Below are positions 391-55,976 of a stretch of DNA of 64,000 nt, piece after piece. The number at the start of each line of letters is the position of its first letter. Positions within the stretch are counted from its first letter, which is position 1. Made by a program: the position numbers and the translations under genes. The DNA comes from a virus. Lineage: Duplodnaviria > Heunggongvirae > Uroviricota > Caudoviricetes. The notes under the pieces are model-generated. The model was not told the DNA's origin. It did no database searches and saw nothing but the letters and a program-made list of their open reading frames with translations. The stretch lies in the IMG/VR virus record IMGVR_UViG_2671180724_000008; one strand, given 5' to 3'.

Positions 391-409
391 AGAAAACAAG
401 TTGTTTCAG
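391..409. promoter_or_regulatory. Copy of recurring palindromic motif AGAAAACAAgTTGTTT upstream of parA
   Basis: Same motif recurs upstream of at least eight other genes in the window. Confidence 0.4.
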
Positions 410-441
410 ACAATAATAATAGACGCAAAGGGAACTCTCCA

Positions 442-1110
442 ATGACCAAGATCTTTGTGGTTGGCGGCACAAAGGGCGGGCCTGGCAAATCCACTGTTGC
501 CCAGCAAATTGCCGTTTGCCTGAAAGTCAAAAAGAAGAAGAAGGTTTATATCACTGATATAGATATTCAGCGCACGACAACAAGCTGGTGTGAAGACCGT
601 CGACAGAACGAAGACCTTGAGCTGATTCCTTTTGCCTACGTTCAGGATGACATCATTAAGCACCTAAAATCGCTTCAGGGTAGAGCTGAGTTTGTAGTGG
701 TAGATGCTGGTGGCTTTGACTCCGAAATTCAGCGACAAGCGATGCTGATGGCCGACGTTATCATTATCCCGCTGCGTCCTAAGCGTCGTGATTTGAAATC
801 TCTGCGTGACATCGATCCTATTATCGACAATGTTCGTAATGTAAACGATAAAGTGAAGGTCCGCGCGGTCATGAACCAGTGCCCGGCTTTGCCATCACAA
901 GTGTCTCGCATTCTGGCGGCTAAAGAGATTGTCGAGACGTTTGGCATCGAGTCTGCGCCAGTCAATCTATATAACCGCAACGTCTACGATGATGCGGAAG
1001 AGTCTGGTCGTTCTATCTTCGAAATGACCGGTAGCGAGCGCGACAAAAAGGCTGAAGCCGAGTTTGAAGAATTTGTAGATTATCTGTTGAGTCTGGAGGA
1101 AGAAGAATAA
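442..1110 (+). CDS. parA: ParA/MinD-family partition ATPase
   Basis: Deviant Walker A GGTKGGPGKST near N-terminus; about 220 aa; followed by overlapping small gene. Confidence 0.8.
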   Translation: MTKIFVVGGTKGGPGKSTVAQQIAVCLKVKKKKKVYITDIDIQRTTTSWCEDRRQNEDLELIPFAYVQDDIIKHLKSLQGRAEFVVVDAGGFDSEIQRQAMLMADVIIIPLRPKRRDLKSLRDIDPIIDNVRNVNDKVKVRAVMNQCPALPSQVSRILAAKEIVETFGIESAPVNLYNRNVYDDAEESGRSIFEMTGSERDKKAEAEFEEFVDYLLSLEEEE

Positions 1111-1469
1111 TGTCCATGAAAATGGGTGACCTAGCAAAGCGCAAAGAGCCTGATGCACCGGCTAAGAACACAACTCCTTTGCGCCAACCAGTCAGACCAC
1201 AGGGACGCCCGACTCGTGGCAAAGAGAAAATTAAGAGCCGCACGATGTCACTGGAGGACGAATACTTCGAACTGCTGGAGATGATGAAGTTCATCCCTCG
1301 TTTCGAGAAATTCACCCGTTCAGACGTGATTCGCGCAGCCATTTTCCATCTGGCAGAGAAGTCACCGCAGGAAATCGAGGACATCGTGAAACTTAACGAG
1401 GCGATCACAGCTGCCGATGTCACGATGCGTACCGATGAAATCAAACGAGAGTTGATGAAAAAAGGTTAA
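1110..1469 (+). CDS. Small basic protein, putative partition partner (ParB/ParG-like centromere-binding protein)
   Basis: Start overlaps parA stop (ATGA-type coupling); basic N-terminus; no motif recognised. Confidence 0.4.
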   Translation: MSMKMGDLAKRKEPDAPAKNTTPLRQPVRPQGRPTRGKEKIKSRTMSLEDEYFELLEMMKFIPRFEKFTRSDVIRAAIFHLAEKSPQEIEDIVKLNEAITAADVTMRTDEIKRELMKKG

Positions 1470-1475
1470 AAATCA

Positions 1476-1508
1476 TGCATTGGCGCAATGTACGCGCCAA
1501 TGCATGAC
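1476..1508. terminator. Strong 13-bp hairpin (CATGCATTGGCGC-aatgtac-GCGCCAATGCATG) between convergent genes; possible bidirectional terminator
   Basis: Perfect inverted repeat between the parA-operon stop and the stop of the minus-strand GIY-YIG gene. Confidence 0.55.
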
Positions 1509-1521
1509 TACAGTGTCAGCT

Positions 1522-2289
1522 TTATGCCGCGCTAACACTATGTTCAGTCCTAACCACCCCAACCTTCACAAAAGGGCTACCGTAGCTTGGTGGCTTCTTG
1601 ATTAATTTGCCTACATACAGTTTTCTAATATGCTCATCGGCTATTCTGCCAACAAATTCATAACGTTTTGTGTCGGGGCCAAGAGCTATATCCCTTGTAA
1701 AGTACTGCTGAGAACCGGCTTTGACCCAGCATTCAATCCGATAAACTTCCATTATCAGCCCACCATATGTAGCGTAGGCATATTTGAGATTCTCGTCTCT
1801 TGGAACCTTTGCCCATACGCCACGCGTAGCTTCATATAATGCCAGAGCGGACATTCCTGACTTGTAGGTGCTGTTTAGCAGGAAGGCAAGACCGGCGTGC
1901 TCAGGAGCAATTTCAGTTTCCTCTTGCAGCACTAAGTGATGGTAGGCGTCCAGTGATATTCTGCCCATCATGGAACCACTTCCTCGTACCTTATTCGTAA
2001 GCTCTCCGACCCCCATAAGGTCGATGCATGTCGCCTCAACAAGTTTGGCTGTGGTTTCATCCATACCATGACGAAGTATATCTATGCCTAATTTTTTATT
2101 AGCCAAAAGTTCTTTGATCCGCATGGATTTGGGAGAGTCATCGGGATACTTGATGTGATCGAGACAACGAGTCGATTTGCCTTTTCCTATGTAAAACGGT
2201 CTTTTCATCTTGTCTTCTGTATCATAGAGACAGTAAACATAGTATTTAGCCTTATCCAATGATCTCGCGTATACCGATAAATCGTCCAT
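1522..2289 (-). CDS. GIY-YIG nuclease-domain protein, possible free-standing homing endonuclease
   Basis: N-terminal YVYCLYD...PFYIGKGK...R...H matches the GIY-YIG signature; encoded opposite to the surrounding genes. Confidence 0.55.
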   Translation of the reverse strand: MDDLSVYARSLDKAKYYVYCLYDTEDKMKRPFYIGKGKSTRCLDHIKYPDDSPKSMRIKELLANKKLGIDILRHGMDETTAKLVEATCIDLMGVGELTNKVRGSGSMMGRISLDAYHHLVLQEETEIAPEHAGLAFLLNSTYKSGMSALALYEATRGVWAKVPRDENLKYAYATYGGLIMEVYRIECWVKAGSQQYFTRDIALGPDTKRYEFVGRIADEHIRKLYVGKLIKKPPSYGSPFVKVGVVRTEHSVSAA

Positions 2290-2400
2290 TATTGCATCTC
2301 TTAGCTACTGACTAATGCGTTCTATTTTACACATAAGTTTTTAATCAATTTAACAGGCTCAAAGTGTAGAGCTTCTGGGCGTCTAAGACGACAAGTTATG

Positions 2401-2458: not shown

Positions 2459-2562
2459 TTTAAAAGACACCACCAGAACAACTCCCTTCCGTTTCCACTT
2501 CCAAAAACTGCCACCAGTCGCTATCATCCGCCCATTGTGATAAGTAAGTAACTACCTACCAG

Positions 2563-3312: not shown

Positions 3313-3355
3313 CTAATACTAGAAAACAATTTGTTTAAAAAACAAAGGAAAGCAC

Positions 3356-4696
3356 ATGACCGAACTTTGCCATACAGGACGCGGGCTGTCCGAAGAGTTT
3401 GATGAAGATTTCCAGAACAGACTGACGGCATATTTTTGTCGTGATCACGAGTTTCTTACTCGTGCGGGAGATCTGGTTGTGCCTAGCCAATTTGCCAATG
3501 CGGCCAATGCCATATTGGTTAATATGGTTTCGGGCTATTACCGTATGTACAAGAGCGCGCCCTCTTCATCTGCAATTCTGGATATGCTTAAGCGTGCGAA
3601 ACGCGATAAGACTATCCGTGAGGAACTATTCGCCGATGTTGTTGCTGCGTTTAAGCGCATCCTTGCAGAAAAATTGTCCGATACCTCGTACATGGTTGAC
3701 CAGGTATCAACCTTCGCAAAAAGCGTAGCGTTTGATGATGCTCTGATTAAGGCTGCTGAACTGAAAGAGAAGGGCGACTTTCAGGGGGCGATGGCAATCA
3801 TGGCCAAGGTTCAGCAGATTGGATCGAATGAAGCGACCGGAATCTATGACTACTACACCTCCGCAAGTGAGCGATTGAAAGCGCGTGAATATGAGGCTTC
3901 AGAGGAGTATGTACCAAACAGTATTACAACTGGACTCCCTCTTCTCGATAGGTTGCTGTACCAAAAAGGCTGGGCAAAGCGCGAAATGGTGCTCTTCATG
4001 GGGTTCGCTAAATCCGGTAAATCGACCGCAATGGGTGAGTTTTCCATAAACGCAACGCTTGCCGGCTACAATGTTCTGTATCTCTCGCTGGAGGTTCACA
4101 CCAACATTTTGTCCGACCGCTTTGATGCAAGATTGTCGGAGACGGAAATGTCCAAGCTGGTGGAACGGCGCGATGAAGTTCATCGTAAGTTGGCAGAGTT
4201 GGGAGCCACGAAGGGGATTGGTAGTTTGTGGGTTGTTGAGCGTCCGTCAGGAAGTATGTCACCGGCCGATCTGGACCGTATGCTTAACAGTATGAAAGCC
4301 AATGGCATGGTGCCTGACATGGTTGTTGTCGACTACGCAGATTTGATGCGTGCCAGTTATGACCTTCGTGATGATCGCGCCAATATTCGTAGTATCTACA
4401 CCGATTTACGTGCTCTTTATGACAAACATAACGTTGCTGGGATCACGGCATCGCAGACAAACCGTGAAGGTGGCGCGTCAGAAGTTGCCACAATGATGCA
4501 CGCTGCCGACAACATCGAAAAAGTACGTATTGCTGACCTGGTAATAACGATCAACAAAACCGAAGAAGAAGAAGCGAAAGGAGAGGCTCGTCTCTACTTT
4601 GCTGGTTCGCGTAACCAGCAGGGAGGGATCAGCATTCGCGTTAAACAAAACCTCGAACAAATGCGCTTCATTGAGCGAATCTTAGACGTTACCTAA
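3356..4696 (+). CDS. DnaB-family replicative DNA helicase
   Basis: RecA-fold Walker A GFAKSGKST and Walker B-like MVVVDYADLM; conserved AAAGGAAAgCACATG initiation context. Confidence 0.8.
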   Translation: MTELCHTGRGLSEEFDEDFQNRLTAYFCRDHEFLTRAGDLVVPSQFANAANAILVNMVSGYYRMYKSAPSSSAILDMLKRAKRDKTIREELFADVVAAFKRILAEKLSDTSYMVDQVSTFAKSVAFDDALIKAAELKEKGDFQGAMAIMAKVQQIGSNEATGIYDYYTSASERLKAREYEASEEYVPNSITTGLPLLDRLLYQKGWAKREMVLFMGFAKSGKSTAMGEFSINATLAGYNVLYLSLEVHTNILSDRFDARLSETEMSKLVERRDEVHRKLAELGATKGIGSLWVVERPSGSMSPADLDRMLNSMKANGMVPDMVVVDYADLMRASYDLRDDRANIRSIYTDLRALYDKHNVAGITASQTNREGGASEVATMMHAADNIEKVRIADLVITINKTEEEEAKGEARLYFAGSRNQQGGISIRVKQNLEQMRFIERILDVT

Positions 4697-4701
4697 AAAA
4701 T

Positions 4702-4726
4702 AAGCGTGGAGAACACCTCCACGCTT
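4702..4726. other. Hairpin AAGCGTGGAG-aacac-CTCCACGCTT in the helicase-primase intergenic region
   Basis: Perfect 10-bp stem; T-run lies on the minus-strand side, so not a plus-strand terminator. Confidence 0.4.
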
Positions 4727-4777
4727 GATTCATTGGTGAAACAACTTTTCTTTTGCCAAACCACAAAAGAAAAACAC

Positions 4778-5959
4778 ATGAGCCTTTATGTTATATCAAC
4801 ATTTAGGTTGGTCACAATATTGCCTGTTAAAAGTGGAATTATCGTGAGCGAGCTGAAAGAGCTAATTACCGAATTAGATTTTGAACAATGGTTGGACACT
4901 GAAGGTATCGTTTATCGACGTGGAGGTGTGAGTGCTCGCGGTCGTGAAGTGAATATCAAGGAGTGTCCGGTATGCGGCAGCTCCAACTGGAAGGTATATT
5001 TCAATCTGACCAGTGGCGTCGGCAAATGCTTCGCTGGTGATCATCCCGAAGAGATTCAGTTCAATAAGCTGGTCTTCCTCAAGCACTACAGCGGTAAATC
5101 ACGACGACAGTTCGAGGAATATGTGCAGAACGCTCTTCTTTCCCAGGGGTGGGCACCAAAGAAAGAAGAGATAGTGCTTGCAAGCACAGTCGAGTTAGAG
5201 GGACCACTTGCACTCCCTCGTCATTACGAGCTTCCTATAGATGGCCGTCTTCCAGACTATCTGGTTGAACGAAACATATCACCTGAAATGGCAAAGTATT
5301 TTGACCTACGATACTGCGTCGAAGGCAAGCACGCTTATGTAGATCCGTATACAGATCAGGTAAAAGGACAGATATTCGATATGCGAGTACTGATACCGGT
5401 TTACGATCTGGATGGGGTAATGAAGACATTTCAGGGACGAGACATTACCGGTACAGCAGACCGCCGCTACCTCTTTCCTATGCAGCTTCCAGCTTCAGGT
5501 AAGTTTCTCTACAACGGCCATAATGCGGTCGGCAAACAGACTGTAGTTGTCTGTGAGGGGGCGTTCGATGTTATGGGGGTTAAACGAGCTATTTTTGATG
5601 AAGAAACATTACGTGATTACGTGGAACCGATAGGAACGTTCGGGATGCATCTATCTGGTAACACCACTCAGGATGCAGAAGATCAGTTAGGCGCGTTCCT
5701 GACGCTCAAGGCGCGTGGGTTACGTAATGTGATCATGATGTGGGATAGTGAAAAGCAAGCTATACGCAACACTATGGCCGCAGCCAGGCGACTGACCAGT
5801 ATCGGTCTTAATGTCAAAGTTGCGTGTTTGGGTGAGGAAGGACTCGACCCAGGCGGTGCAACGCCAGAACAAATTATCAAAGCCTATTATCGGGCAAAAC
5901 CGTATACCAAACAGTTGGAGTTGCAAAGCAAGGTTTTGGGCATTAAGGCTCTATCGTAA
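4778..5959 (+). CDS. DNA primase (zinc-ribbon plus TOPRIM, DnaG-like)
   Basis: CPVCGSS...GKC zinc motif and VVVCEGAFDVMG TOPRIM-like motif; start set at 4778 by the conserved AAAACACATG context. Confidence 0.75.
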   Translation: MSLYVISTFRLVTILPVKSGIIVSELKELITELDFEQWLDTEGIVYRRGGVSARGREVNIKECPVCGSSNWKVYFNLTSGVGKCFAGDHPEEIQFNKLVFLKHYSGKSRRQFEEYVQNALLSQGWAPKKEEIVLASTVELEGPLALPRHYELPIDGRLPDYLVERNISPEMAKYFDLRYCVEGKHAYVDPYTDQVKGQIFDMRVLIPVYDLDGVMKTFQGRDITGTADRRYLFPMQLPASGKFLYNGHNAVGKQTVVVCEGAFDVMGVKRAIFDEETLRDYVEPIGTFGMHLSGNTTQDAEDQLGAFLTLKARGLRNVIMMWDSEKQAIRNTMAAARRLTSIGLNVKVACLGEEGLDPGGATPEQIIKAYYRAKPYTKQLELQSKVLGIKALS

Positions 5960-10263: not shown

Positions 10264-10339
10264 GATGGTGTAGCTCAGCGGTAGAGCAGTTGGCTGTTAA
10301 CCAACTGGTCGGTGGTTCGAATCCACCCACCATCGCCAA
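10264..10339 (+). tRNA. tRNA-Asn (anticodon GUU)
   Basis: Cloverleaf by hand: acceptor GATGGTG/CACCATC, anticodon stem GTTGG/CCAAC with loop CTGTTAA, T-arm GGTGG-TTCGAAT-CCACC, 3' CCA. Confidence 0.8.
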
Positions 10340-10343
10340 TTTA

Positions 10344-10430
10344 GGGGAGTTAGTCCGTAGAGGTAGCGGTGTAGACTGTAAATCTACTGTCATTGCGACT
10401 CGGGTGGTTCGACTCCATCACTCCCCACCA
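10344..10430 (+). tRNA. tRNA-Tyr (anticodon GUA), long variable arm
   Basis: Acceptor GGGGAGT/ACTCCCC, anticodon stem GTAGA/TCTAC with loop CTGTAAA, T-loop TTCGACT, 3' CCA. Confidence 0.7.
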
Positions 10431-10434
10431 AATT

Positions 10435-10510
10435 GCCGGTTTAGCTCAGTTGGTAGAGCGCCTGCCTTGTAAGCAGGATGTCAGCGGTTCGTGTCCGTTA
10501 ACCGGCACCA
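10435..10510 (+). tRNA. tRNA-Thr (anticodon UGU)
   Basis: Acceptor GCCGGTT/AACCGGC, D-arm GCTC-AGTTGGTA-GAGC, anticodon loop CTTGTAA, T-arm AGCGG-TTCGTGT-CCGTT, 3' CCA. Confidence 0.8.
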
Positions 10511-13393: not shown

Positions 13394-14497
13394 ATGAAAA
13401 ATAGCTTTGACAGAGCACGCGCTGCGGAGAACACCTCAAAAGAGGCGATTGAGTATCTCGAAAGAGCATCTCAAATGCAGGCCGTTATGATCTCGCAGGT
13501 TAGCAATGACATGAGATTCTCGGACGCATTCATGTTATTCACTCGCTTATCTCTGCTTATAACCAGACGTCGGCCAGAGATCGCTGTTCATTGTATTTTG
13601 ATACATGTTTTGCCGCACATTGCTGATGTAAAAGTAAGTGACATTAATAGGTTCATGGTGAACCAACTGGTAAACCCACTAATACTGGATGGCAAAATTG
13701 TTATGGGCCGCCGCGTTTTCTCTCTGATGAAGCAGTTCCTTAGCTGGTGCGCCTTCCAGGGGATGATAGACGTGTCACCGTTAAACGATATGTCACTAAA
13801 CAAAGTTGCCGGTGGCGCAAAGCCCACACCTCGCGAGCGGAAGCTGACCGACGCAGAGGTATGGGTGTTCTGGAATATATGGGACTACTTCAATGTGTGC
13901 GCTGGTACAAAATGGGCGGCCAGGCTGTGTCTTGTATCAGCAAGACGACCTGACGAAGTACTGCGGGCTAAAAAAAGTGAGTTCAATCTTAAGCGTGGGG
14001 TTTGGAATCAAGGCAAGAGAAACAAGTCAGCACGTGAGCATTCGCTGCCTTTAAGCACATTAATGCGCACATGCATTGAAGAGTTGTTCGAATACGGTAA
14101 AGACAGCCAGTGGCTCGTGCCTTCGAATAAAAAAATCGGGAAAGACCTTCCTATGTCTAAAGTGGCAATAGCCCAGGCATTACGTCGTATTCTGGAACGA
14201 CCAGAACTGATGGAGCTTGAGCCATTTACACCCCGAGATTTGCGCCGTACTGCGCGTAGTTACTTCCCAGCATTAGGCATAAGCCAGGAGGTATCACGCA
14301 AAATCATGAACCACAGTCTTGAGGGGATAGATCGGGTCTACGACCGGCACGATTATATGGACGAGATGCGAGACGCCTTAGAAAGTTTCTCGACGTACAT
14401 CGCATCAATCGTAGAGCAACCGGATTTAGACGAAATTGACCACAAATTCAAGGGAGATCGTCTATCAACAGAGCTTATTCGTGTAAATTTTTCATAG
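13394..14497 (+). CDS. Tyrosine recombinase (phage integrase family); integration versus dimer-resolution role unresolved
   Basis: C-terminal motifs RDLRRTARSY and HSLEG...RVYDRHDY resembling P4-type integrase R/H-x-x-R/Y signature, recalled from memory; no obvious N-terminal arm-binding domain. Confidence 0.65.
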   Translation: MKNSFDRARAAENTSKEAIEYLERASQMQAVMISQVSNDMRFSDAFMLFTRLSLLITRRRPEIAVHCILIHVLPHIADVKVSDINRFMVNQLVNPLILDGKIVMGRRVFSLMKQFLSWCAFQGMIDVSPLNDMSLNKVAGGAKPTPRERKLTDAEVWVFWNIWDYFNVCAGTKWAARLCLVSARRPDEVLRAKKSEFNLKRGVWNQGKRNKSAREHSLPLSTLMRTCIEELFEYGKDSQWLVPSNKKIGKDLPMSKVAIAQALRRILERPELMELEPFTPRDLRRTARSYFPALGISQEVSRKIMNHSLEGIDRVYDRHDYMDEMRDALESFSTYIASIVEQPDLDEIDHKFKGDRLSTELIRVNFS

Positions 14498-14878
14498 AGA
14501 CTTTATGGCCTCAACAACCTTTTGTGATGCGCCTTTCTCTTTACCGAATCGCTCGTTATATGCAGCAAGAACCTGTTTTTCGTCCTCGTTAAGAGGAGCG
14601 GTGCCTTCTTTGTATAAAAATGCTGCGAGTTCAGGTTGGCGTTCTTCCAGCACCATCATCATAAGACGACTTGGCTCAATACCCAGCGCCAGCGCCAGCG
14701 GACGAACCTTATCGATAGGCAAAGGAATTTTGCCACTTTTAATTAAAGAAAGGTTGTTGGCATTTTTATAACCAATAAGTCTGGCTATTTGGGCCTGACT
14801 CATAGGTGAGGATTCAATCAGCCCTGCGATAAAAGCAGCATAGCGACTTTCTATAAATTCAATCTTGTTGTCAGACAT
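14492..14878 (-). CDS. XRE-family helix-turn-helix transcriptional regulator
   Basis: HTH region SQAQIARLIGYKNANNLSLIKSG; divergent from downstream plus-strand genes. Confidence 0.7.
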   Translation of the reverse strand: MSDNKIEFIESRYAAFIAGLIESSPMSQAQIARLIGYKNANNLSLIKSGKIPLPIDKVRPLALALGIEPSRLMMMVLEERQPELAAFLYKEGTAPLNEDEKQVLAAYNERFGKEKGASQKVVEAIKSL

Positions 14879-15129
14879 TGTTACAACCTTTGCGCGTTTA
14901 ATTCTCTCTGGTAAGTGCTTACCGATATTACATCAAAGGTTAGGGTTGTAAAGCTATTATCATTTTTTTCGGCAGGCACTTGTAAGACCGAGCAAAGGTC
15001 CATGCATGGAGAAAAACTAGCCCAAAATAGGTAAGAAAATTAACTTGCATCTGATATAGATGTATTCAGTATTGATACAAATTTTAGTAGTATTCCTTAC
15101 CATAGTATAAGTTAGAATGGATTGATTGA

Positions 15130-15342: not shown

Positions 15343-15440
15343 CCCCTCTTCTCCCTGCGCGAATGGCTTAGTTCCCTGTTCGCGCAGTGCTACATTAAAC
15401 ACACTAGTAAATAATTTGTTTTCATAACAAAGGATTAGCC

Positions 15441-17549
15441 ATGTCTAAAAAACGTTCCATCAAAGAGGTTCAGGACTTCCGTGACAGTGTAAAACGAGTA
15501 GTCGCTCTCCTTTCAGGTAAAAACATCCCTGTTGCAGAACGAGGGGACGACGCTTATGTACGCTATAACGATGATGGAGAGCCAATTCTCGTAAACATCC
15601 CATCAATCCCGGATAACGCAACACCGGCATTGATGAATGCTGTGCGCGGATTTCTCGATCATGAGGTTGCTCACATTTTGTTTACCGATATTCGTGTGTC
15701 CAACAAAATGAGAGAAAAAGGACGCGTTCCTTCCTGGTCGCTATGGAATGCCTTAGAAGACGTGTTCATCGAGCGAAAAATGGGGCAGGTCTTTAACGGA
15801 ACAAGACGTAATCTGATGGCAACTCAGCGCCTTATAATCGAAAAAGTCTTTAAACCAAAGGCTTCAGAGGCTATTGCTTATTGTGGCAAAGATCAGCGCG
15901 CGCTTTTTCTAAACTTCTTTCTCTGTCCGGTTGTAAGAGCCTGGGATGGCCAAGCACCGTTCGTAGATTTCATGGATGAATACTGGCCTGTCATTGAGAA
16001 ACCAATTTCATTATTAAAAGAACATGGTATCGATGTGGCCGTGCGTAACATGTCTTGCACCGAGGATTGTGTAAAGGTGGCTGCGACCATAGCTAAGATC
16101 CTCAAAGACACTGAAAGTGAAAGCAAAGGTAAGGAGTCAGCTCCGGGAAAAACTTCCGATCCTTCAGACGCTGACCAGACGGATGCCTCTGGAGAAAACA
16201 ATGAAGACAACGAAGATCATGAGACACCCTCAGCGTTAGATAATCACAAATCTATCGAATCAGAATCACACAGTAAGCACAAACATGATAATAACGACAG
16301 TGATGATTCAGATAATTCTGAATCATCAGAAACAATATTCGATGATACAGAAAATGATAAAGAGGTATCAGATTCTGATGCTTCTGATAACGCGGCGTCA
16401 GAATCATTAACCGCTGGCCACGAAAAAAGAAAAACGACAGAAGACGGCTCTTCAGATATTCCAACTCCGTCAAAAATGAGTCTGGAAGAGGCTTTAGAGG
16501 AGCTGGATAGCATAGAAGATGAAGTCGGAGGCATGACAGAAGATGCTCTATCCGAAACGATTAAAAGCGAGTTAACAGAAAGCTCGAAAAGCGAATACAG
16601 GCCATACAATCGCTCATACGACTTCATCGGCTCGATTGATCAGGCAGAAGCCCATATCAAACGGCTTATTAAAACATTCTCCGATATTGATTTAGGAGGA
16701 TATCCAATCAGCCGCTATCGCATCGTTCCTGAAGGCAACCAGCTCTTCGACAAATATATTGAAAAGCATCTTTCGTCAGGTGTTTCGTCGACGCTGGCAA
16801 AAGACCTGGAGCGAGCAATAGCAAGCAGAAACAGAGTTCAGTTTATACCGGGCCAGCGTCGGGGGCGCATTCATGGTTCTAGTATCTACAGATTAGCAAT
16901 GAATGATGATCGCGTGTTTCGTAAAAAAGAAGAATCTAAAGCCGTTAACGCCTGTGTTCAACAAGTGATTGATTTATCAGGTTCAATGAGTGGCGAAACG
17001 ATAAAACTAGCTCTTGCAAGTGCATATACCATCGCCGATGCTCTTGATCGAATAAATGTTCCCAACATTATCACCGGCTTCACTACATTTGGCAGTCATC
17101 TGGCAGCGATAGAACTTAAGGCTATCAAGTATGAGTTCTCTCGCTTTGAATCTTTAATGCTACCTATCATCAAAAATTGGAATGAAAAAGCAAATTCTCG
17201 CGAAGTTCGCTCACGTATGGGGTGCGTAGGCTACACATTCCCACTTCTTAATAACGTGGATGGTGAAAGCATAGCCAGCCTTGCATCGTTATTTTCCGGT
17301 CGCATGGAGGACAGGAAGATCATGCTTGTTCTGAGCGATGGCGAGCCGCTGGCTGTTGGGAGAGGTTTTGACGCTCATTTGCGTTCGGTTGCGAAGCAAA
17401 TTGAAACGCAGACTGACATTGATTTGATGGCAATTGGCATCATGACTGACGCACCGGAGAGATTTTACGCAAATCATGCCCTGGTAACGAGCGTTGATAG
17501 TCTTGGTTCATCTGTAGTTACTGAACTATCTCGTATCATTTTGAAGTGA
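15441..17549 (+). CDS. CobT-like protein with C-terminal vWA domain and acidic Ser/Asp-rich linker
   Basis: MIDAS-like DLSGSMSG motif in C-terminal third; long low-complexity acidic insert; adjacent to AAA ATPase. Confidence 0.6.
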   Translation: MSKKRSIKEVQDFRDSVKRVVALLSGKNIPVAERGDDAYVRYNDDGEPILVNIPSIPDNATPALMNAVRGFLDHEVAHILFTDIRVSNKMREKGRVPSWSLWNALEDVFIERKMGQVFNGTRRNLMATQRLIIEKVFKPKASEAIAYCGKDQRALFLNFFLCPVVRAWDGQAPFVDFMDEYWPVIEKPISLLKEHGIDVAVRNMSCTEDCVKVAATIAKILKDTESESKGKESAPGKTSDPSDADQTDASGENNEDNEDHETPSALDNHKSIESESHSKHKHDNNDSDDSDNSESSETIFDDTENDKEVSDSDASDNAASESLTAGHEKRKTTEDGSSDIPTPSKMSLEEALEELDSIEDEVGGMTEDALSETIKSELTESSKSEYRPYNRSYDFIGSIDQAEAHIKRLIKTFSDIDLGGYPISRYRIVPEGNQLFDKYIEKHLSSGVSSTLAKDLERAIASRNRVQFIPGQRRGRIHGSSIYRLAMNDDRVFRKKEESKAVNACVQQVIDLSGSMSGETIKLALASAYTIADALDRINVPNIITGFTTFGSHLAAIELKAIKYEFSRFESLMLPIIKNWNEKANSREVRSRMGCVGYTFPLLNNVDGESIASLASLFSGRMEDRKIMLVLSDGEPLAVGRGFDAHLRSVAKQIETQTDIDLMAIGIMTDAPERFYANHALVTSVDSLGSSVVTELSRIILK

Positions 17550-26715: not shown

Positions 26716-26916
26716 ATGATCAAAATCTATCTATTGGCAGTAGCCACAGGCCTTTCAGTGGCTCTCATCTACGGATTACTGGTTCCGTCGCTGATTTCTG
26801 CAAAGAGTGATTTGGCCGTCATGCTTGGAGTTCTCGTTGGTTTTGGTACTCCTGTAATCGGTCTTATTGCTGGTCGTAAGTTTATTAACTCATTAATCAA
26901 AGCAAAGGGGAAATAA
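26716..26916 (+). CDS. Small two-TM membrane protein (possible NfeD-like partner of the SPFH protein)
   Basis: 66 aa, two hydrophobic helices; stop 4 bp before SPFH gene. Confidence 0.5.
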   Translation: MIKIYLLAVATGLSVALIYGLLVPSLISAKSDLAVMLGVLVGFGTPVIGLIAGRKFINSLIKAKGK

Positions 26917-27750: not shown

Positions 27751-27767
27751 CTCTCTTTGAGAAGTTC

Positions 27768-27791
27768 AGGCGTCCAGTTGGACGCCGTTTT
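27768..27791 (+). terminator. Rho-independent terminator (AGGCGTCC-agtt-GGACGCC then GTTTT)
   Basis: Hairpin plus T-run. Confidence 0.7.
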
Positions 27792-27845
27792 ATTCTCGTT
27801 ATTATCACATACAAGAAAACAATTTGTTAAAAGGTTAAGTTAATT

Positions 27846-28670
27846 ATGCCCAACCACATTACAAACGAAATCCGAGTCATAGGTGGCACAAATAAACAAC
27901 GCTTAGATTTCATACGTGCCATAACTAACAAAAAAGGTCTAATTGACTTTAATACCATTTGCAGACGTCCGAAAAGTATAGAAATGGAAGAAAACAATCA
28001 TATCAGGCGCATGGCCTCTGCAATGGCGGGCGAAACAGTTTACGACTACATGTTCGGTGAATTAAAGACTCCAGAACAGCTCGAATTAGCTATGCGTGAA
28101 TCAGGAATGACACGCAAGGAAATTCGCAAAATCAAAGAGCAGGCTCTTATGCGGCTTGAGAATTATCGTCGCTATGGCTATTACTCATGGTTTGACTGGT
28201 CGCGAGCTAATTGGGGAACAAAATGGAATGCCTACAACATCGAAATGCCCGTAAAACGTATCCCTACACGTATTAAGTACGGCCATAATTTCCGCCATAC
28301 ACACGTTCGAGCATATGCAAAACGAATCTATAAAAAACGTCTTGCAAGACATGCCGCAACTGGTGGTGAGTTGGTGATTCGCTTTGAAACAGCCTGGTCT
28401 ATGCCAAAACCAATTTATCAAGCGATGGCTAGAAAGTTCCCGCACCTTGAGTTTGTAATACGTTATGCAGACGAAGACTTCGGCAATAACTGCGGATTCA
28501 TTTTACTTCGCAACGGCAAATGGGAATATGACTACATTGCACCGGCGAATAACGAACAATCGTCAGAAGAAAAAATCAAATGGCGCAAGTTCGCCTTTGA
28601 GTTATGTTGTCCTGGTATCACTCCACAAGAATACGGTCTAAATGAAGAATACGAATACGCCGGATATTAA
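27846..28670 (+). CDS. Hypothetical protein
   Basis: 274-aa ORF preceded by the AGAAAACAATTTGTT motif. Confidence 0.5.
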   Translation: MPNHITNEIRVIGGTNKQRLDFIRAITNKKGLIDFNTICRRPKSIEMEENNHIRRMASAMAGETVYDYMFGELKTPEQLELAMRESGMTRKEIRKIKEQALMRLENYRRYGYYSWFDWSRANWGTKWNAYNIEMPVKRIPTRIKYGHNFRHTHVRAYAKRIYKKRLARHAATGGELVIRFETAWSMPKPIYQAMARKFPHLEFVIRYADEDFGNNCGFILLRNGKWEYDYIAPANNEQSSEEKIKWRKFAFELCCPGITPQEYGLNEEYEYAGY

Positions 28671-41281: not shown

Positions 41282-41308
41282 GGTGGGGGGTATCCCCACC
41301 TTCTCTTT
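41282..41308 (+). terminator. Rho-independent terminator (GGTGGGG-ggtat-CCCCACC then T-rich)
   Basis: Hairpin after nrdA stop. Confidence 0.65.
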
Positions 41309-41381
41309 GATTTGTAAGCCTTGTTTAAACAAATAAGATAACAACTTGTTTAAACACATCAAAAAGCAAAAGGAAAAACAC

Positions 41382-42524
41382 ATGTCATATTCAACGTTCC
41401 GTTTGGGTGCTAATGATGCAACCAAAGAGCCTATGTTCCTCGGACAATCTGTCAACGTGGCACGTTACGATCAGCAAAAATACCGTGATTTTGAAAAGTT
41501 GATTGAACGTCAATTGTCTTTCTTCTGGCGGCCGGAAGAAGTTGATATTTCGAGCGATCGCATCGACTTCAATACGAAGCTGCGGGACCACGAACGCCAC
41601 ATTTTCCTGAGTAATCTCCGTTATCAAACGTTGCTCGATTCAGTTCAGGGACGTAGCCCAAATGCAACGCTGCTGCCGCTTATCTCTATTCCTGAACTGG
41701 AAACGTGGGTTGAAACGTGGTCTTTCTCTGAGACTATCCATAGCCGTAGCTACACCCACATTATTCGTGGCATGGTGGACGATCCGAGCATTGTTTTTGA
41801 CGGTATTGTTACGGATGAAGAAATCATCAACCGAGCGATCAGTATCTCTGCTGAATATGACAGGCTTTATGGGATGACATGCGAGCGCCAGTCGTTAGGT
41901 GAGAAGGAGTTTGAACGTCTGTACGTAAATGAATATGGCTGGGAGCCATACCCTTTGCACCGTCAGCTTTTCCGCACGTTGGTGTCCATTAATGCGCTTG
42001 AGGCGATCCGTTTCTATGTAAGTTTTGCATGTACGTTTGCCTTTGGCGAACGGAAGTTGCTTGAGGGTAACACCAAAATTATGCGCTTTATTGCCCGTGA
42101 TGAAGCTCTGCATTGCGAAGGAACTGAACGCATGATCCGCTTCATGCGTACCGGTCGAGAAGGTTTATTGTGGAAAGAGATTGCTGCTGATGAAGAAAAC
42201 GTCATTTACGACACCATGAAATCAGTCGCCGAACAAGAAATGAACTGGGCAGACTATCTCTTCAAAGACGGTTCGATGATTGGTTTAAACGCGGATATTC
42301 TCAAAACCTATGTAAAATACCGCACCAATCTGGCTATGAATCGTCTTGGCCTGAAGGCTTTATTTCCAGAAGTTACCACTGATCCGCTGGTCTGGATGAA
42401 CAAGTGGTTGTTAACCGACACACTGCAAATTGCACCACAAGAGGCAGAGCAAAGCACATATCTGGTAGGTCAGATCGATTCTACCGTGGATAAGGCTTCT
42501 CTAAGCCAGTTTGCAGACCTGTAA
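41382..42524 (+). CDS. nrdB: Ribonucleotide reductase small subunit (NrdB)
   Basis: Ferritin-like di-iron protein directly after nrdA; start set at 41382 by AAAAGGAAAAACACATG context. Confidence 0.85.
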
Positions 42525-49094: not shown

Positions 49095-49153
49095 CCTGCT
49101 TCTGTAAATAAATAACTACATATTAATTATTAATATACGGAAGCAGGCTGTTT
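49095..49153. repeat. Long hairpin element (CCTGCTTCTGTA, AT-rich loop, TACGGAAGCAGG); second copy of the 2401-2458 element
   Basis: Near-identical 12-bp stems. Confidence 0.5.
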
Positions 49154-51501: not shown

Positions 51502-51594
51502 CGGTTGTTAGTGCATATGCATTGACCGTCTTTGCGTAAGCAATTTATTTAACTAGAAAACAACTTGTTTTGACAAATAACAAAAGGAAAACAC

Positions 51595-52020
51595 ATGTTA
51601 GGTTTCTTCAAAAAGAAAACTCGTAAAGCAGTTATCGAAGTCAAAAAAATGGAGAACCGTGATGCGGTTGAGGCCACCGTGTGGGGCGCGTACATGATCT
51701 CCTATGCCGACGGCACATGTGACGCAAAAGAAATTGCCATTCTTGAGAAGACAATTGCAGCTCTGCCTGCGTTTTCTCCGTTTGCTGGTGAGATTGCCCA
51801 AATGAGCGCCAATATCCGTGCTCGTTACGAAGCGTCCCCTCGTTCCGCTAATGCACAGGCTATGCGTGAGCTGGCTGATATTGCGGGCACTCCAGAGGCG
51901 GTCGATGTTCTGTGTCTGTGCCTTGATATTGCCGACCAGGACGGCATTGGTGAACAAGAAGAGCAGGCACTGAAAAAGATCGCCCAGGCGCTTCAGTTGT
52001 CACTGGATGCTTATCTCTAA
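51595..52020 (+). CDS. TerB-like domain protein (tentative)
   Basis: Pattern YADGTCDAKEIAILEK ... ALQLSLDAYL reminiscent of TerB/DjlA-N family; conserved promoter and RBS motifs upstream. Confidence 0.4.
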   Translation: MLGFFKKKTRKAVIEVKKMENRDAVEATVWGAYMISYADGTCDAKEIAILEKTIAALPAFSPFAGEIAQMSANIRARYEASPRSANAQAMRELADIAGTPEAVDVLCLCLDIADQDGIGEQEEQALKKIAQALQLSLDAYL

Positions 52021-52178: not shown

Positions 52179-52181
52179 TGA

Positions 52182-52208
52182 CAAGGGCCAAATGGCCCTT
52201 GTGTTTCG
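52182..52208 (+). terminator. Rho-independent terminator (CAAGGGCC-aaat-GGCCCTTG then T-rich)
   Basis: Hairpin plus T-rich tail. Confidence 0.65.
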
Positions 52209-52317
52209 TTGACCGAAATAGAGAGTTTGCACCTTTACGTTTAGCTTGCTCCCCTTTTATGCCACATCACAATAAAGCCAATAAGAAAACAACTTGTTTA
52301 AGCATTAAGGAAAACAC

Positions 52318-52884
52318 ATGTGCGAGAAATGCAAAGCAATAGCTGATGAACAAAACGCCCTATTCGAAGAAATGGATGCTAATGAACTTGTCAAAATGTT
52401 AGGCATTGTTCGGGGAACAGAAGACGTTTCCATATTTGAGAGACTGTTTACAGTACTTAATTTTAATTCCACCTTTGAAGAACCAACTCAGGTTGTAGCT
52501 TTAGCACATCATTTCGGCGTTCATTACCTTGCTGAAAAAGAGAGAGCTGATAAGTTGCAAGCGACTTTGGATATGGTGAGCGAGACTCAAGGAACTCATG
52601 ACGGTAACAAAAGTGAGACGATTATTGCCAGCAAAGATCGTGAAATTGCCGGACTTAAGTCTTCTCTAACGATGTTGATGTCTGCATTCAATCTGATGTC
52701 TTCTAAGGCGGGTTATAAAATGCCGTCACTAAACAGTGACGATCCAATGGCCGTTCGTCAGCTTTTGGGAGCAATGGCCGACCAGCTCGACGACACAAAG
52801 AGTCGCCTTGAAGACATGATGCGGGAGCTCACGCATCGCCATGACTTGAATAAGCAGCCGCACAAAACGCAATACGCACTCTAA
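52318..52884 (+). CDS. Hypothetical protein
   Basis: 188-aa ORF with conserved promoter and RBS motifs. Confidence 0.5.
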   Translation: MCEKCKAIADEQNALFEEMDANELVKMLGIVRGTEDVSIFERLFTVLNFNSTFEEPTQVVALAHHFGVHYLAEKERADKLQATLDMVSETQGTHDGNKSETIIASKDREIAGLKSSLTMLMSAFNLMSSKAGYKMPSLNSDDPMAVRQLLGAMADQLDDTKSRLEDMMRELTHRHDLNKQPHKTQYAL

Positions 52885-52902
52885 TACTGCACCAGTCGAC
52901 AG

Positions 52903-52926
52903 GGGGCGAAAGCCCCCATTTTTACG
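52903..52926 (+). terminator. Rho-independent terminator (GGGGGC-gaaa-GCCCCC then ATTTTT)
   Basis: GC stem with GNRA-like loop plus T-run. Confidence 0.75.
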
Positions 52927-53025
52927 CCTTAAATCTGCTGTAACGCCTATGAATGCAGCTTTTATGCCTTTTCAAGTTTGCGATAATTACACCAATAAGA
53001 AAACAAATTATTTAATGGTGTAATT

Positions 53026-54711
53026 ATGAATACAGCCCTTTCCATCATCGACGATGCCAGCTCAAACACGGCTATCGACTATCGTCAGGAAATGAATGTC
53101 ATCCACGAAATCGTGGCCGAGTGCGAGAAAGAGATCGCCTTCATGTATCAGGTACACGACTTCGTTTATGGCGACGAACGCCACAACATGATTAATCGCC
53201 TGCTGCGACTAAACCATCGACCAGATGAAGATCGCTCGCGTTTAAATCGAGGTTGGTTGGATAAAGTCGATCTGGAATGGGTGAAACAGAATATTTGGGC
53301 CGAGTACTGGAGGAAGGTCACGGACATGACTAACGTTTTGCTGATCATGCCAGCTTCCCGTCGAGATGAGTGGCGCGAGCAGTTTATAGAGGGCAAACAG
53401 GAAGTCATCAAAACTGACAGAACCGGCTACCAGATGAAAGTTAAAGAGTTCGTTGGTGTACCGGAGTTCAAAGCAGAAACGGTCATACCCACGATGCTTA
53501 ATTTGCTGAATGACAGGCACAAATATCTCTCTGAGCGCGTGTATGGCTTGTTTAAGGCGCTGAGTCCTGCGCACAAGACAAATAAGACAAACGGTTTCAG
53601 CGAGCGGCTGATAATCGCTGACTGCATTTCTGATTTCTGGCGGGACAGCGTTAGCGTGAACTATCGCAAAGAGGACTACATCGACGATCTGCGTGTCTTG
53701 CTTCATTTCTTCGCGCACAAAGAATTTATTACCATCAACCGCACTGCTGAGGTGCTATCAGCTGCGTATAGGGCAAACGACTGCCAGACCGGTGACTGGA
53801 TGAACGTCGATGGAAATCTGATGCGCGTGAAGATGTTCAAGAACGGCAACGTTCACTTTGAAATACATCCTGACGTGGCCTGGAAGTTGAATGAGGTGCT
53901 GGCTTACAGTATGCCTGCTGCAATCCCCGCGCCATGCCGCACTGCGCCAAAAACACGGGCACCAAAGCAGTTCGGGTTAATCCAGAAGACGATCTCCGTG
54001 CCGGTTCGCACTGCGCTTCGTGACGGGCGATTGAGCAAAGACAAAGGCGTATGGTACTTCTCTGATTCAGCTCTCCAGAAGTCGCAGGTGGAAGAGCTTG
54101 AGCGCACACTGAGCTTCATTGGCGGCGTGCAGGAGAAAAAGCACTGGCAGTTCCCGTATGACATCGGCCATACGCTAAATACGATTGTGGCTACCGGTTT
54201 AATACCGGATACAAAATCACACCAGTTCTACCCTACCCCACGCTTGATTGCTGAGTACGTTGCCAGAGCCACTGAATTGAAGCCTGGTGAGAAGCTGCTG
54301 GAGCCTCAAGCCGGACGTGGGGATCTTCTGGCCTATATTAACGCCGATCTGGAAGATGTTACCTGCATAGAAATCGCACCTCTCTTCGCTGATATCCTGC
54401 GTGGAAAAGGGTATACGAACACGATTTGCTGCGACTTCATAAAGTGGTCTGAGGACAACGCAGGTTATCAGTTCGACAAAATCGTTATGAACCCGCCGTA
54501 CTCGCTTGGTCGTCATAGAGAGCACACGATGGCTGCGCTGGGGCATCTGAAAGTCGGCGGGCGTCTTGTAGCAGTATTGCCGGGCACTGCGCCAATACTG
54601 GACTGGATGACGATGGATAATTACGTTTATGCCAGAGGGAAGTCGTTTACCAACGAGTTTGAAGACACAGGGATCACAGTCAGCGTATACGTTTTCAAAC
54701 GCGTTAAATGA
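53026..54711 (+). CDS. Two-domain protein: about 400-aa N-terminal region of unknown function fused to C-terminal N6-adenine/N4-cytosine-type DNA methyltransferase domain
   Basis: C-terminal motifs FYPTP, EPQAGRGDL (AdoMet binding) and NPPYS (catalytic). Confidence 0.7.
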   Translation: MNTALSIIDDASSNTAIDYRQEMNVIHEIVAECEKEIAFMYQVHDFVYGDERHNMINRLLRLNHRPDEDRSRLNRGWLDKVDLEWVKQNIWAEYWRKVTDMTNVLLIMPASRRDEWREQFIEGKQEVIKTDRTGYQMKVKEFVGVPEFKAETVIPTMLNLLNDRHKYLSERVYGLFKALSPAHKTNKTNGFSERLIIADCISDFWRDSVSVNYRKEDYIDDLRVLLHFFAHKEFITINRTAEVLSAAYRANDCQTGDWMNVDGNLMRVKMFKNGNVHFEIHPDVAWKLNEVLAYSMPAAIPAPCRTAPKTRAPKQFGLIQKTISVPVRTALRDGRLSKDKGVWYFSDSALQKSQVEELERTLSFIGGVQEKKHWQFPYDIGHTLNTIVATGLIPDTKSHQFYPTPRLIAEYVARATELKPGEKLLEPQAGRGDLLAYINADLEDVTCIEIAPLFADILRGKGYTNTICCDFIKWSEDNAGYQFDKIVMNPPYSLGRHREHTMAALGHLKVGGRLVAVLPGTAPILDWMTMDNYVYARGKSFTNEFEDTGITVSVYVFKRVK

Positions 54712-54772
54712 TAGGTAAATACTTACTTAATTTGTGTAAGAATGTAGTAACTAAACGATAAGAGAAAAACAC

Positions 54773-55477
54773 ATGAACAACCTCCAGTTAGAGCATTTTA
54801 ACGTCACAGGCCATTCTGATTTTCCTTTCAAGTTTACATTGAAAGGTTATGCAGAGGATGCGGTAGGCCAGATCATTATTGATAAAGGCATCGTTAAGTT
54901 TGAGGGGAATTTTGATGAATCCGCGAAAACATTCATAGACTTCGTTGCCAAACGTTGGAGCGAGCAATGGAAAGACCTGGAAAAGCGCGCCAATGAGTTT
55001 GATCGGTTCATGGATGCAATGGATACAGCAAAAGAGGCTCTGGCTGCCGGGACTCCGTTAGATCTGGAGTCACTTTTCAACGGCGAAGTGGCCTCTGCAA
55101 TGTTCGCCACCATGTTCGCGGGTGAGTTCGTCCGCAGCGGTGCCAAAAACTACCTTGAGCTGGATTACAACGTCCCTGCAATTGGCGATTTCGTCGTTAC
55201 CATCCAACGCAAAGAAGGTAAGACGCCAGGTGAACGCGTCGCAGAGCTTGAGGCCGTTGTGGATCAGCGTAACGGAGAGTGTGACCGTTTGATCAACGAG
55301 CTTCATGCACTTCGGGAAGAAAGAATATGCGCGGGTAGCAATACACGTAATGCAGCGGATATCTACTTCCAGTTAGTTGAGGAATGCCAGATTCCACCAG
55401 GTGGCTCTCTTGTCGATTACGTAAGACATTTAATGGCGGAAGTTAGCTCCAGCCATAAAGATGGTGAGGTGCGCTGA
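54773..55477 (+). CDS. Hypothetical protein
   Basis: 234-aa ORF. Confidence 0.5.
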   Translation: MNNLQLEHFNVTGHSDFPFKFTLKGYAEDAVGQIIIDKGIVKFEGNFDESAKTFIDFVAKRWSEQWKDLEKRANEFDRFMDAMDTAKEALAAGTPLDLESLFNGEVASAMFATMFAGEFVRSGAKNYLELDYNVPAIGDFVVTIQRKEGKTPGERVAELEAVVDQRNGECDRLINELHALREERICAGSNTRNAADIYFQLVEECQIPPGGSLVDYVRHLMAEVSSSHKDGEVR

Positions 55478-55857
55478 TGTTTGGCATTGACGCACAGCGT
55501 ATAGCCGCTTTTGCAAAAAGCCCTCTTGATAATCCCTTGTCTCGTAGTGAGCAAATGGAGCTGGCAAGGCTTTTTCTTCATATTCAAAAACAGTCAGACG
55601 TTTTCAATAACATGCCTGATCAACCTATTCTGGATGGTCACATCCAGATGGTCATTAACAGTCATGAGAAAGGCTGGGCTGCAATCGTCCCCAGCACAAT
55701 TACATACAAGTTGGCGAAAGAGGTTCAAGAGTTTCGAAAAGCCAGTGTCGAATCGGAGTCTACCAAAGCCGCAATAAACACTCTTATTCGCATGGGATTC
55801 ACATGGAACGGTGGAGCCTACTGGCAAGCACCTCACCCCATTTTATCCGGCAATTAG
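55477..55857 (+). CDS. Hypothetical protein
   Basis: 126-aa ORF coupled to upstream gene. Confidence 0.45.
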   Translation: MFGIDAQRIAAFAKSPLDNPLSRSEQMELARLFLHIQKQSDVFNNMPDQPILDGHIQMVINSHEKGWAAIVPSTITYKLAKEVQEFRKASVESESTKAAINTLIRMGFTWNGGAYWQAPHPILSGN

Positions 55858-55976
55858 ACGCTACAAATCCTTCTGCGTGAATAAATAAAGGCCATAAGTT
55901 GTGGCCTTAAATAAATTGTTTTCTGCCTTTTCTTATTTGTGAAAATAACCACAACTAGAAAACAACGGAGTTAAGA

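Follow-up and report, generated by a model that had tools for sequence, protein, structure and literature searches.

A dispersed palindrome as a probable operator of sigma70 promoters in SSU5/pHCM2-type phage-plasmids

The stretch of viral DNA analyzed here (IMG/VR record IMGVR_UViG_2671180724_000008; 64,000 nucleotides, hereafter the window) belongs to an SSU5/pHCM2-type phage-plasmid of Escherichia coli and carries a 19-base near-palindrome, AGAAAACAAnTTGTTTAA, in eight full copies, one half copy, one inverted copy, and one weak copy. The most likely explanation is that this palindrome is the binding site of one regulator that switches at least nine genes together. Specifically, comparison with related genomes leads us to propose, with moderate confidence, that it is a DNA operator common to a family of sigma70 promoters of this phage-plasmid.

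Phage-plasmids of the SSU5/pHCM2 type are frequently found in Enterobacteriaceae from clinical sources. A 1.6-kb piece of the window region matches 436 plasmid records, among them 239 from Klebsiella and 172 from Escherichia, with others from Enterobacter, Shigella, Citrobacter, and Cronobacter. A 6-kb piece is about 97% identical to the Escherichia phages CMS-2020a, Cyrano, and PhiR41_1 and 80 to 88% identical to Salmonella phage SSU5 and Klebsiella phage-plasmids; Cyrano is the pLF82 phage-plasmid, whose host is E. coli LF82. A search of the literature returned no description of the regulatory circuitry of these elements, nor of the palindrome or of the start-associated motif described below.

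Occurrence of the palindrome in the window

With at most one mismatch, the pattern AAACAANTTGTTT matches the window at nine positions (394, 3324, 15409, 27817, 41339, 51558, 52287, 53001, and 55909), against 0.38 expected, and none of 100 shuffles reached nine. A 29-nucleotide (nt) weight matrix gave eight sites scores of 27 to 36, the next best being 15. When the matrix was built from the cassettes of relatives only, it recovered sites centered at 400, 3330, 15415, 27823, 41345, 51564, 52293, 53007, and 55966 (scores of 24 to 50) and added an inverted copy centered at 55915 (35.5) and a weak site at 61517 (19.2); the maximum in shuffled sequence was 11.9. A chance origin of the palindrome, and likewise of the start-associated motif, is ruled out by the shuffles and by the weight matrix trained on other genomes. 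Every copy is intergenic, and none falls in coding sequence although about 88% of the window is coding and only 12% is not. The forward copies each lie 11 to 42 nt (center to ATG) upstream of the next plus-strand gene. The excess of the palindrome before at least nine genes, noted in a preliminary description of this DNA, therefore holds, with its coordinates right to within a few bases.

The first plus-strand site, AGAAAACAAGTTGTTTCAG (391..409), stands before parA (ATG at 442), downstream of a canonical promoter, TTTACA-17 nt-TAGGCT (350-378). The second, AGAAAACAATTTGTTTAAA (3321..3339), precedes a dnaB-like helicase gene (ATG at 3356) and is found at the same place in SSU5 and Klebsiella relatives. 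Next come AGTAAATAATTTGTTTTCA (15406..15424), before a cobT-like gene (ATG at 15441) and downstream of a hairpin (15355-15387) and an extended -10, TGcTACATT, and AGAAAACAATTTGTTAAAA (27814..27832), before the open reading frame (ORF) at 27846-28670, with a terminator hairpin upstream (27767-27786). The site before nrdB (ATG at 41382) is AGATAACAACTTGTTTAAA (41336..41354), and upstream of it are an everted TTGTTTAAACAA (41321-41332) and a hairpin (41285-41297); what had been taken for a double copy at 41320 is this everted element beside one true site, with no second full copy. Three more plus-strand sites follow: AGAAAACAACTTGTTTTGA (51555..51573), before a tciA-like gene (ATG at 51595); AGAAAACAACTTGTTTAAG (52284..52302), before the ORF at 52318-52884, with CACAAT as its -10 and a terminator-like hairpin at 52181-52202; and AGAAAACAAATTATTTAAT (52998..53016), before a DUF4942/methylase-like gene (ATG at 53026), with an extended -10, TGCGATAAT, at 52979-52987 and a terminator-like hairpin at 52902-52917.

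The rightmost sites are less regular. At 55957..55975 on the plus strand, the half-site AGAAAACAAcggagttaag has a Shine-Dalgarno sequence in place of its right half (ATG at 55977), with an extended -10, TGTGAAAAT, upstream at 55938-55946. A full inverted copy, AGAAAACAATTTATTTAAG, lies on the minus strand at 55906..55924, directly after a hairpin (55888-55908) and exactly 51 bp upstream of the half-site centered at 55966. The site earlier described at 55956 is thus correct as to its left half, AGAAAACAAcggag, but it is not full, and its full partner is the inverted copy. Finally, the weak candidate AGAAAAAAATTTGTTAAAA (61508..61526, plus strand; score of 19.2) lies in a long noncoding stretch before a umuD-like gene.

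Promoter-like cassettes in related genomes

When viral contigs were scanned for the exact pattern, more than 120 loci were obtained, nearly all SSU5-like, and 236 sites were reduced to 82 nonredundant cassettes from relatives; the sites were gathered with an exact-match seed, and the conservation percentages given below are therefore inflated. Whole-genome scans of Cyrano and SSU5 found the palindrome at orthologous genes and at additional ones, about 12 strong copies per genome, including a dense run before small genes just past the right end of the window. The structural gene block of these two genomes has no internal copies and only a weak one before the small terminase gene, where two other relatives have a stronger copy.

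The anatomy of these cassettes, their phasing, their conservation, and their symmetry can be read directly from the 82 sequences, whose consensus is ttg.gatAATaAcaCcAAtAAGAAAACAAnTTGTTTAAg. At one offset, A(-11)...T(-7) occurs in 37 of the 82, while about 4 is typical elsewhere and 18 is the maximum. The dinucleotide TG is found at the extended -10 position, one base upstream of the hexamer, in 29 of the 82; the commonest hexamer is GATAAT, in its extended form TGnGATAAT, and the window sites have GATAAT, GAAAAT, CACAAT, or TACATT at this place. This pattern is the signature of an extended -10 sigma70 promoter. Matches to a -35 are poor, and none is usable. The palindrome lies 10 nt after the phased extended -10, and a conserved C-A lies 7 nt after the -10. 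Since this C/A is the predicted transcription start, the palindrome would extend from about +5 to +23, with its center near +13; at parA, the center would be near +19 of the predicted transcript. Terminator-like hairpins occur immediately upstream of three cassettes according to a scan, and three further ones were read by eye; they fit autonomous transcription units.

In 13 of the 82 cassettes, a mirror palindrome (at most two mismatches) lies exactly 51 bp upstream, center to center, and no other spacing is enriched for a second copy. The flanks of the mirror copy are inverted as well, CCTTAAACAAnTTGTTTTCT being the reverse complement of AGAAAACAAnTTGTTTAAGG. Both AGAAAAC halves face the -10 in these paired cassettes, which are two-fold symmetric about it, and the upstream copy follows the preceding terminator and covers the -35 region. 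The window contains a single such pair, 55915/55966 (55906-55924 with the half-site at 55957-75).

Probable recognition as DNA rather than RNA

Positions +/-1 to +/-6 are 90 to 100% conserved on both halves of the palindrome in the exact-seed collection of 82 cassettes, and the base-by-base conservation holds across genera in which the flanks have diverged. The center base, by comparison, is evenly spread (T 23, G 23, C 20, A 16). Compensated deviations at mirrored positions number 0 of 29, the best hairpin is only -0.7 kcal/mol, and an Rfam scan of the window found three tRNAs only, with no family at the palindrome. An RNA or cruciform hairpin was rejected, given this low stability and the lack of covariation. 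The lack of compensation, together with the position of the upstream copy outside the sense transcript, points to a symmetric dimer that recognizes the DNA duplex, and the sequences fit such recognition rather than an RNA structure.

The palindrome might nonetheless be read in the leader RNA by a protein controlling translation or stability, such as the FljA-like protein of relatives. The predicted position of the palindrome, +5 to +23, is inside the transcript; TTGTTTAAGGAG merges with the Shine-Dalgarno sequence in many cassettes, and the right half abuts it in short leaders. Moreover, CYRAN_114 of Cyrano and SSU5_121 match the Pfam family Flag1_repress (FljA) with an E value of 1e-80, and the FljA-like protein of close relatives has a weak Hfq/Sm-like match. 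FljA-type proteins have been reported to prevent translation of fliC mRNA (PMC2652032). We nevertheless consider this explanation quite unlikely: the mirror copy 51 bp upstream lies over the -35, outside the sense transcript; the conservation is two-fold symmetric, with a free center base, no compensatory changes, and a negligible hairpin; and the FljA homologue is encoded outside the window (Cyrano OV696614, 100780-101301; SSU5, 96897-97343). Mimicry of the FljA target was also considered, on account of the CAAGTTGT...TAAGGAAAA shared with the Salmonella fliC leader, and was supported by neither profile nor matrix search. An nhmmer profile of the cassette did not match the fliC 5' untranslated regions of Salmonella, Citrobacter, and E. 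coli, and the best matrix scores in fliC leaders are -7.7 to -16; the top one, -7.7, ranks about 40 to 50 of 16,000 positions, which is unremarkable within the 8-kb loci. Since fliC leaders do not resemble the cassette, they lend no positive support to an RNA operator. Independently of the palindrome, these phage-plasmids encode a close homologue of FljA, the phase-1 flagellin repressor, and this homologue may act on host flagellin, of which we found no mention in the searchable literature.

A proposed regulon and its expression in a lysogen

An operator at these promoters would act within a cassette of about 90 bp, often running from the terminator hairpin of the previous gene through an extended -10 (TGnGATAAT) and a C/A start context to the palindrome AGAAAACAAnTTGTTTAA at about +5 to +23, the Shine-Dalgarno sequence, and the ATG. 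A dimeric, sequence-specific DNA-binding protein encoded by the element would sit on the palindrome and block initiation or promoter escape. In this way, roughly a dozen transcription units dispersed over each genome would be kept off, or tuned, jointly. The regulon would take in the helicase, cobT, nrdB, tciA, a methylase, and many small accessory genes, and in relatives also the small terminase gene that heads the structural genes. In paired cassettes, the upstream operator would overlap the -35, and two dimers would bracket the -10 and could cooperate.

The preliminary description had suggested a promoter or operator class, and an operator class shared by many transcription units agrees with the tie of the palindrome to promoters, its phasing to the -10, and its symmetry. 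It had also called the class phage-specific, but nothing points to a polymerase or promoter type peculiar to the phage: what is conserved upstream is an ordinary extended -10 of the sigma70 kind, and the palindrome is outside the promoter core, downstream of the predicted start. Nor is "early" a supported label for the class, as the same palindrome is found before parA and, in relatives, before the small terminase gene.

Per-gene RNA sequencing values for the Cyrano lysogen, from a study of LF82 prophages (PMC9928086, S1 Table), have a prophage median of 9.8. Genes directly behind the palindrome have values of 21 (helicase), 7.8 (cobT), 5.7, 12.9 (nrdB), 7.0, 7.1, 6.3, 7.5, 12.8, 12.2, 6.7, and 25.5, all at or near background. 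The parA operon, with 50, 89, and 55, is the sole operator-bearing unit that is clearly on. The low expression of the other operator-preceded genes fits repression.

A positive promoter element would also leave the palindrome-preceded genes silent in the Cyrano lysogen. In this view, the initially transcribed region, alone or together with the upstream copy, would be needed for activation, as a site for an element-encoded activator or for a modified host polymerase, and would mark a temporal class of lytic promoters instead of a repressed one. The lack of a usable -35 is typical of activator-dependent promoters, and the upstream copy, near -38, has roughly the position of class II activator sites. 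The invariant copy, however, is the downstream one near +13, where repressors typically bind and activators seldom do; promoters with an extended -10 can normally do without a -35; and the parA promoter, with a good -35 and -10, still has the palindrome. Furthermore, the Pfam matches of about 40 proteins included no sigma factor, polymerase, or activator. Activation is therefore, in our judgment, distinctly improbable.

If the palindrome is indeed an operator, a 19-bp site marking about a dozen units per genome would define a regulon, predict transcription starts, correct some annotated translation starts, and offer a bait for the regulator of accessory and lytic genes. For example, three Cyrano starts that overlap the palindrome appear to be annotated too far upstream, since the profiles of their families match only from residues 8, 13, and 24 onward. 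The 51-bp mirror pairing and the start-associated motif are likewise testable design features. The Pseudomonas phage nickie, a syntenic lytic relative, has neither parA nor the palindrome, a comparison that weakly fits a link between the palindrome and the plasmid/temperate lifestyle.

A candidate regulator in the parA operon

The parA gene (442-1110, plus strand), whose orthologues have CbiA/MipZ/ParA-type Pfam matches, is followed by a gene for a 119-amino-acid protein (1110-1469, plus strand) that overlaps its end. Given an operator role for the palindrome, this small protein is the best, if tentative, candidate for the binder, because its operon has the operator on a full-strength promoter and is clearly on in the Cyrano lysogen. 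An active operon with an operator in its promoter is the pattern expected for negative autoregulation. The 119-amino-acid protein is the partner of a small ParA, and in systems of this type it is usually the partner that represses the shared operon. The parA promoter and its palindrome are kept in Klebsiella and other lineages, the promoter in three lineages; the palindrome is present here in the window, SSU5, the Klebsiella type, and one further lineage. The SSU5 version of the protein is 93% identical and those of other lineages are 48 to 64% identical, Klebsiella relatives having 48%, and its invariant residues cluster in a basic tail and in a strand-helix-helix-like segment (read by eye). 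Where it is only 48 to 64% identical, the palindrome stays the same, also in the parA promoter. The 119-amino-acid protein is encoded in all 11 enterobacterial phage records that have the helicase. The 48%-identical Klebsiella homologue goes with the same palindrome, which leaves no covariation of protein and operator to compare.

Several points weigh against this account of the palindrome, its promoters, and its binder. A generic -35/-10 scan called no promoter at the palindrome sites, so that the promoter assignment is based on the phased extended -10. Weak or activator-dependent promoters would give the same low values in the Cyrano lysogen, and these values are near the floor and noisy. 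As for the 119-amino-acid protein, a DNA-binding fold was supported neither by Pfam and PDB sequence searches nor by Foldseek with an AlphaFold2 model (pLDDT of 63, low confidence) or hhalign against five ribbon-helix-helix proteins (ParG, omega, CopG, Arc, and Mnt), which were all negative or uninformative. Small ParA partners usually bind repeat arrays, not single palindromes, and only one palindrome, with no array, lies upstream of parA. Co-occurrence does not discriminate either, because protein and palindrome are both present in every relative sampled.

Other proteins appear less suited to the role. The helix-turn-helix (HTH) repressor encoded at 14492-14878 is an unlikely binder, having a different palindrome, GGTAAGTGCTTACC (14910-14923), before its own gene; moreover, SSU5 retains the palindrome studied here but has no homologue of this repressor within the 100 kb that were searched. 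The ParB-like CYRAN_119 is an unlikely binder in the lysogenic state, as it is silent in the Cyrano lysogen (its value of 5.0 is the floor). The sole regulator-type Pfam matches were a weak HTH in the 14492-14878 repressor and in SSU5_116, plus the FljA-like proteins; Pfam searches with about 40 proteins and PHROGs searches with 10 gave no other regulators.

In its broadest form, this proposal would make the 119-amino-acid protein both the segregation adaptor and a global silencer across the SSU5/pHCM2 family, with a motif like the start-associated SAS of mycobacteriophages as a translational layer. We regard this as unlikely as a whole; if true, partition would be coupled to the silencing of accessory and lytic genes through about a dozen or more palindromes.

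The presence of a conserved copy in the parA promoter across lineages, and of about 12 strong copies per genome, could also mean that the palindromes are dispersed centromere sites on which the ParA partner assembles for segregation, the promoter link being secondary. Such dispersed sites are known in the plasmid prophage N15. Segregation, however, does not need the strict position and orientation that the palindrome keeps relative to the -10 and to start codons; the sites are single, without arrays, and the structural gene block has no copies within it; and binding of the ParA partner to the palindrome is itself a conjecture. We consider a centromere very unlikely. Least probable of all is a site for a host factor such as IHF, or a purely recombinational junction repeat without a regulatory role: the core of the palindrome matches the IHF consensus (WATCAANNNNTTR) at 7 of 9 positions, and Cyrano/SSU5 homology breakpoints lie within 75 bp of cassettes (27839, 27826, 55951, 52967, and 15343), the Cyrano and SSU5 breaks at 27839 and 27826 being beside the palindrome at 27814..27832, but its conservation is symmetric, unlike that of IHF sites, and persists base by base across genera with diverged flanks. 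A role at module junctions was set aside, as breakpoints at cassettes (8 of 45, against about 12% expected if breakpoints are intergenic, which leaves no enrichment) are no commoner than expected for intergenic DNA.

An independent start-associated motif

With at most two mismatches, AAAGGAAAACACATG matches the window 10 times, against 0.26 expected, always on the plus strand and always at a translation start. The family comprises 13 members, with ATGs at 3356, 4778, 17645, 19061, 22705, 23254, 26716, 30411, 34344, 41382, 51595, 52318, and 54773. The preliminary description had reported the context AAGGAAAACACATG before at least a dozen starts and listed 11 of them, all of which we recovered; 19061 and 23254 are additions. 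The helicase member is AAAGGAAAGCACATG (3344..3358, plus strand), and the others end at 4780, 17647, 19063, 22707, 23256, 26718, 30413, 34346, 41384, 51597, 52320, and 54775. Several share up to 22 nt, AACCACAAAAGGAAAAACACATG. Of 84 starts, 15 have the triplet CAC immediately before the start codon (-3 to -1), whereas base composition predicts 1.35% (P = 5e-13). The motif conserves bases beyond those that pair with 16S rRNA, and it does so at a subset of starts. The palindrome and the start-associated motif are independent, because only 4 of the 13 genes with the latter carry the palindrome; the rest are mostly preceded by another class of palindrome.

The most likely interpretation is that AAGGAAAA(A/G)CACATG is a selected, unstructured, A/C-rich context for ribosome loading that has spread among genes, and an intrinsic enhancer of this kind is the simplest reading of the motif. 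No homologue of RegA was found (Pfam, about 40 proteins; PHROGs, 10). An RNA directed against the motif was rejected, as no reverse-strand copy occurs in the window.

Near the primase gene, the copy AAAGAAAAACACATG (4766..4780, plus strand) follows the helicase terminator (4704-4724) and opens a leader reading frame that either reads through into primase or is coupled to it; in the window, this leader (4778-4846) is in frame with primase. The upstream motif is kept in four lineages, and the following 16 to 25 codons are not conserved; in SSU5 and one other relative, the leader ORF ends at a TGA that overlaps the primase ATG. These features suggest a ribosome-loading leader with translational coupling and speak against a mere shift of the primase start to 4778; the earlier reassignment of this start is accordingly doubtful.

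A second palindrome class and other features of the window

A second and commoner palindrome class, TA(A/G)GTA-N6-TAC(T/C)TA, is probably the first motif of the preliminary description. Its sites are at 2541, 5975, 6856, 9497, 30706, 34213, 38897, 48448, 50661, and 54712, and also at 14910-14923. It can occupy the -35/-10 spacer of canonical promoters, as in TTGAAA-17 nt-TATCAT before the ORF at 26716. In SSU5 and in Cyrano it is present 19 times, where shuffled window sequence gives about 3, and in these genomes it also occurs between structural genes. The two classes alternate: nrdA has the TA(A/G)GTA-N6-TAC(T/C)TA class, and nrdB has AGAAAACAAnTTGTTTAA.

According to the Cyrano annotation, the gene order runs from parA partition through replication, recombination, and nucleotide metabolism to the umuD-like gene, and the plus strand carries nearly all genes of the window. 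Directly after the parA module, a segment missing from Cyrano holds a minus-strand ORF (1522-2289) whose product has a GIY-YIG nuclease domain (Pfam, E = 6e-7), perhaps the result of insertion of a mobile nuclease. Three tRNA genes are clustered at 10264-10507 (Rfam, 75, 42, and 71 bits). Two alike, long, AT-rich, noncoding inverted repeats (2401-2455 and 49095-49147), closed by CCTGCTTC...GAAGCAGG, could be bidirectional terminators or protein-binding sites.

Toward the right end, an 800-bp noncoding stretch (60864-61665) holds a direct repeat, AGTCGCCAGATACTTA(C/T)GGC, at 61077-61096 and 61250-61269, 173 bp apart. A LexA-box-like palindrome, TACTGTATGCATATACAGTA (61630-61649), lies 17 nt upstream of the umuD-like S24 peptidase gene (61666-62055), whose value in the Cyrano lysogen, 148 against the median of 9.8, indicates good expression. 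The gene at 62093-63193 (minus strand), labeled "septum site-determining protein MinD" in Cyrano, matches the Mrp/NUBPL family of iron-sulfur P-loop ATPases (PF10609, E = 2e-102). Synteny with phage nickie (NC_042091, 22436-63734; about 112 kb) covers helicase, primase, ligase, cobT, cobS, dnaE, SSB, exonuclease, and recA; nickie has a repeated promoter-like cassette of its own, with a TAnAAT hexamer flanked by GC-rich inverted repeats (e.g., GCGCGCTTGTACAATGCAAGCGCG).

Comparison with known systems

The lac operator O1 is centered at about +11 to +13 and has auxiliary operators. The palindrome resembles it in that the main site is downstream of the predicted start and an upstream copy could cooperate; it differs in the fixed 51-bp spacing, in the mirror symmetry of the copies about the -10, and in its repetition at many promoters. 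The proteins omega (pSM19035), ParG (TP228), and KorB (RK2) are ParA partners that repress their own operons, omega and KorB acting at other promoters too, and the KorB site is a 13-bp palindrome found at many promoters. In contrast to these, the 119-amino-acid protein is a candidate by inference, and the sites are single palindromes downstream of the start, not arrays.

The closest described parallel to the start-associated motif, as a conserved short motif at translation starts, is found in Cluster K mycobacteriophages, where start-associated sequences (SAS) and extended SAS (ESAS) occur at the starts of 11 to 19 genes, in the nonstructural half only (PMC3203893). About half of them have inverted repeats just upstream, and no function was assigned to them in that report, which also mentions the stoperators of mycobacteriophage L5 (PMC3203893). 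Unlike SAS and ESAS, which are unrelated in sequence and come from another host phylum, our palindrome is fixed to the -10, and the two motifs are independent. Like the stoperators, it is intergenic and has one orientation relative to transcription. Those of L5 are numerous, 13-bp, asymmetric sites in short intergenic spaces, in one orientation, that act on elongation and are not linked to promoters, whereas the site described here is palindromic and phased to the -10, which sets it apart from stoperators. The promoter-stem-loop (PeSL) cassettes of T4-type phages provide small accessory genes with their own promoter and stem-loop, are located at module junctions, and have no operator. The present cassettes are likewise repeated and have a predicted promoter, often with a hairpin, before small genes; their association with junctions is only suggestive.

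In the plasmid prophage P1, the C1 operators are asymmetric 17-mers scattered over about 100 kb at the promoters of separate operons, including replication and accessory genes. Unlike them, the site described here is a 13-bp core palindrome located after the start, with an unrelated sequence and a binder that is only a candidate, and it co-exists with the TAGGTA-N6-TACCTA class in the same phage-plasmid genome. Like them, it is one site scattered at the promoters of separate units of a plasmid prophage, replication and accessory genes included.

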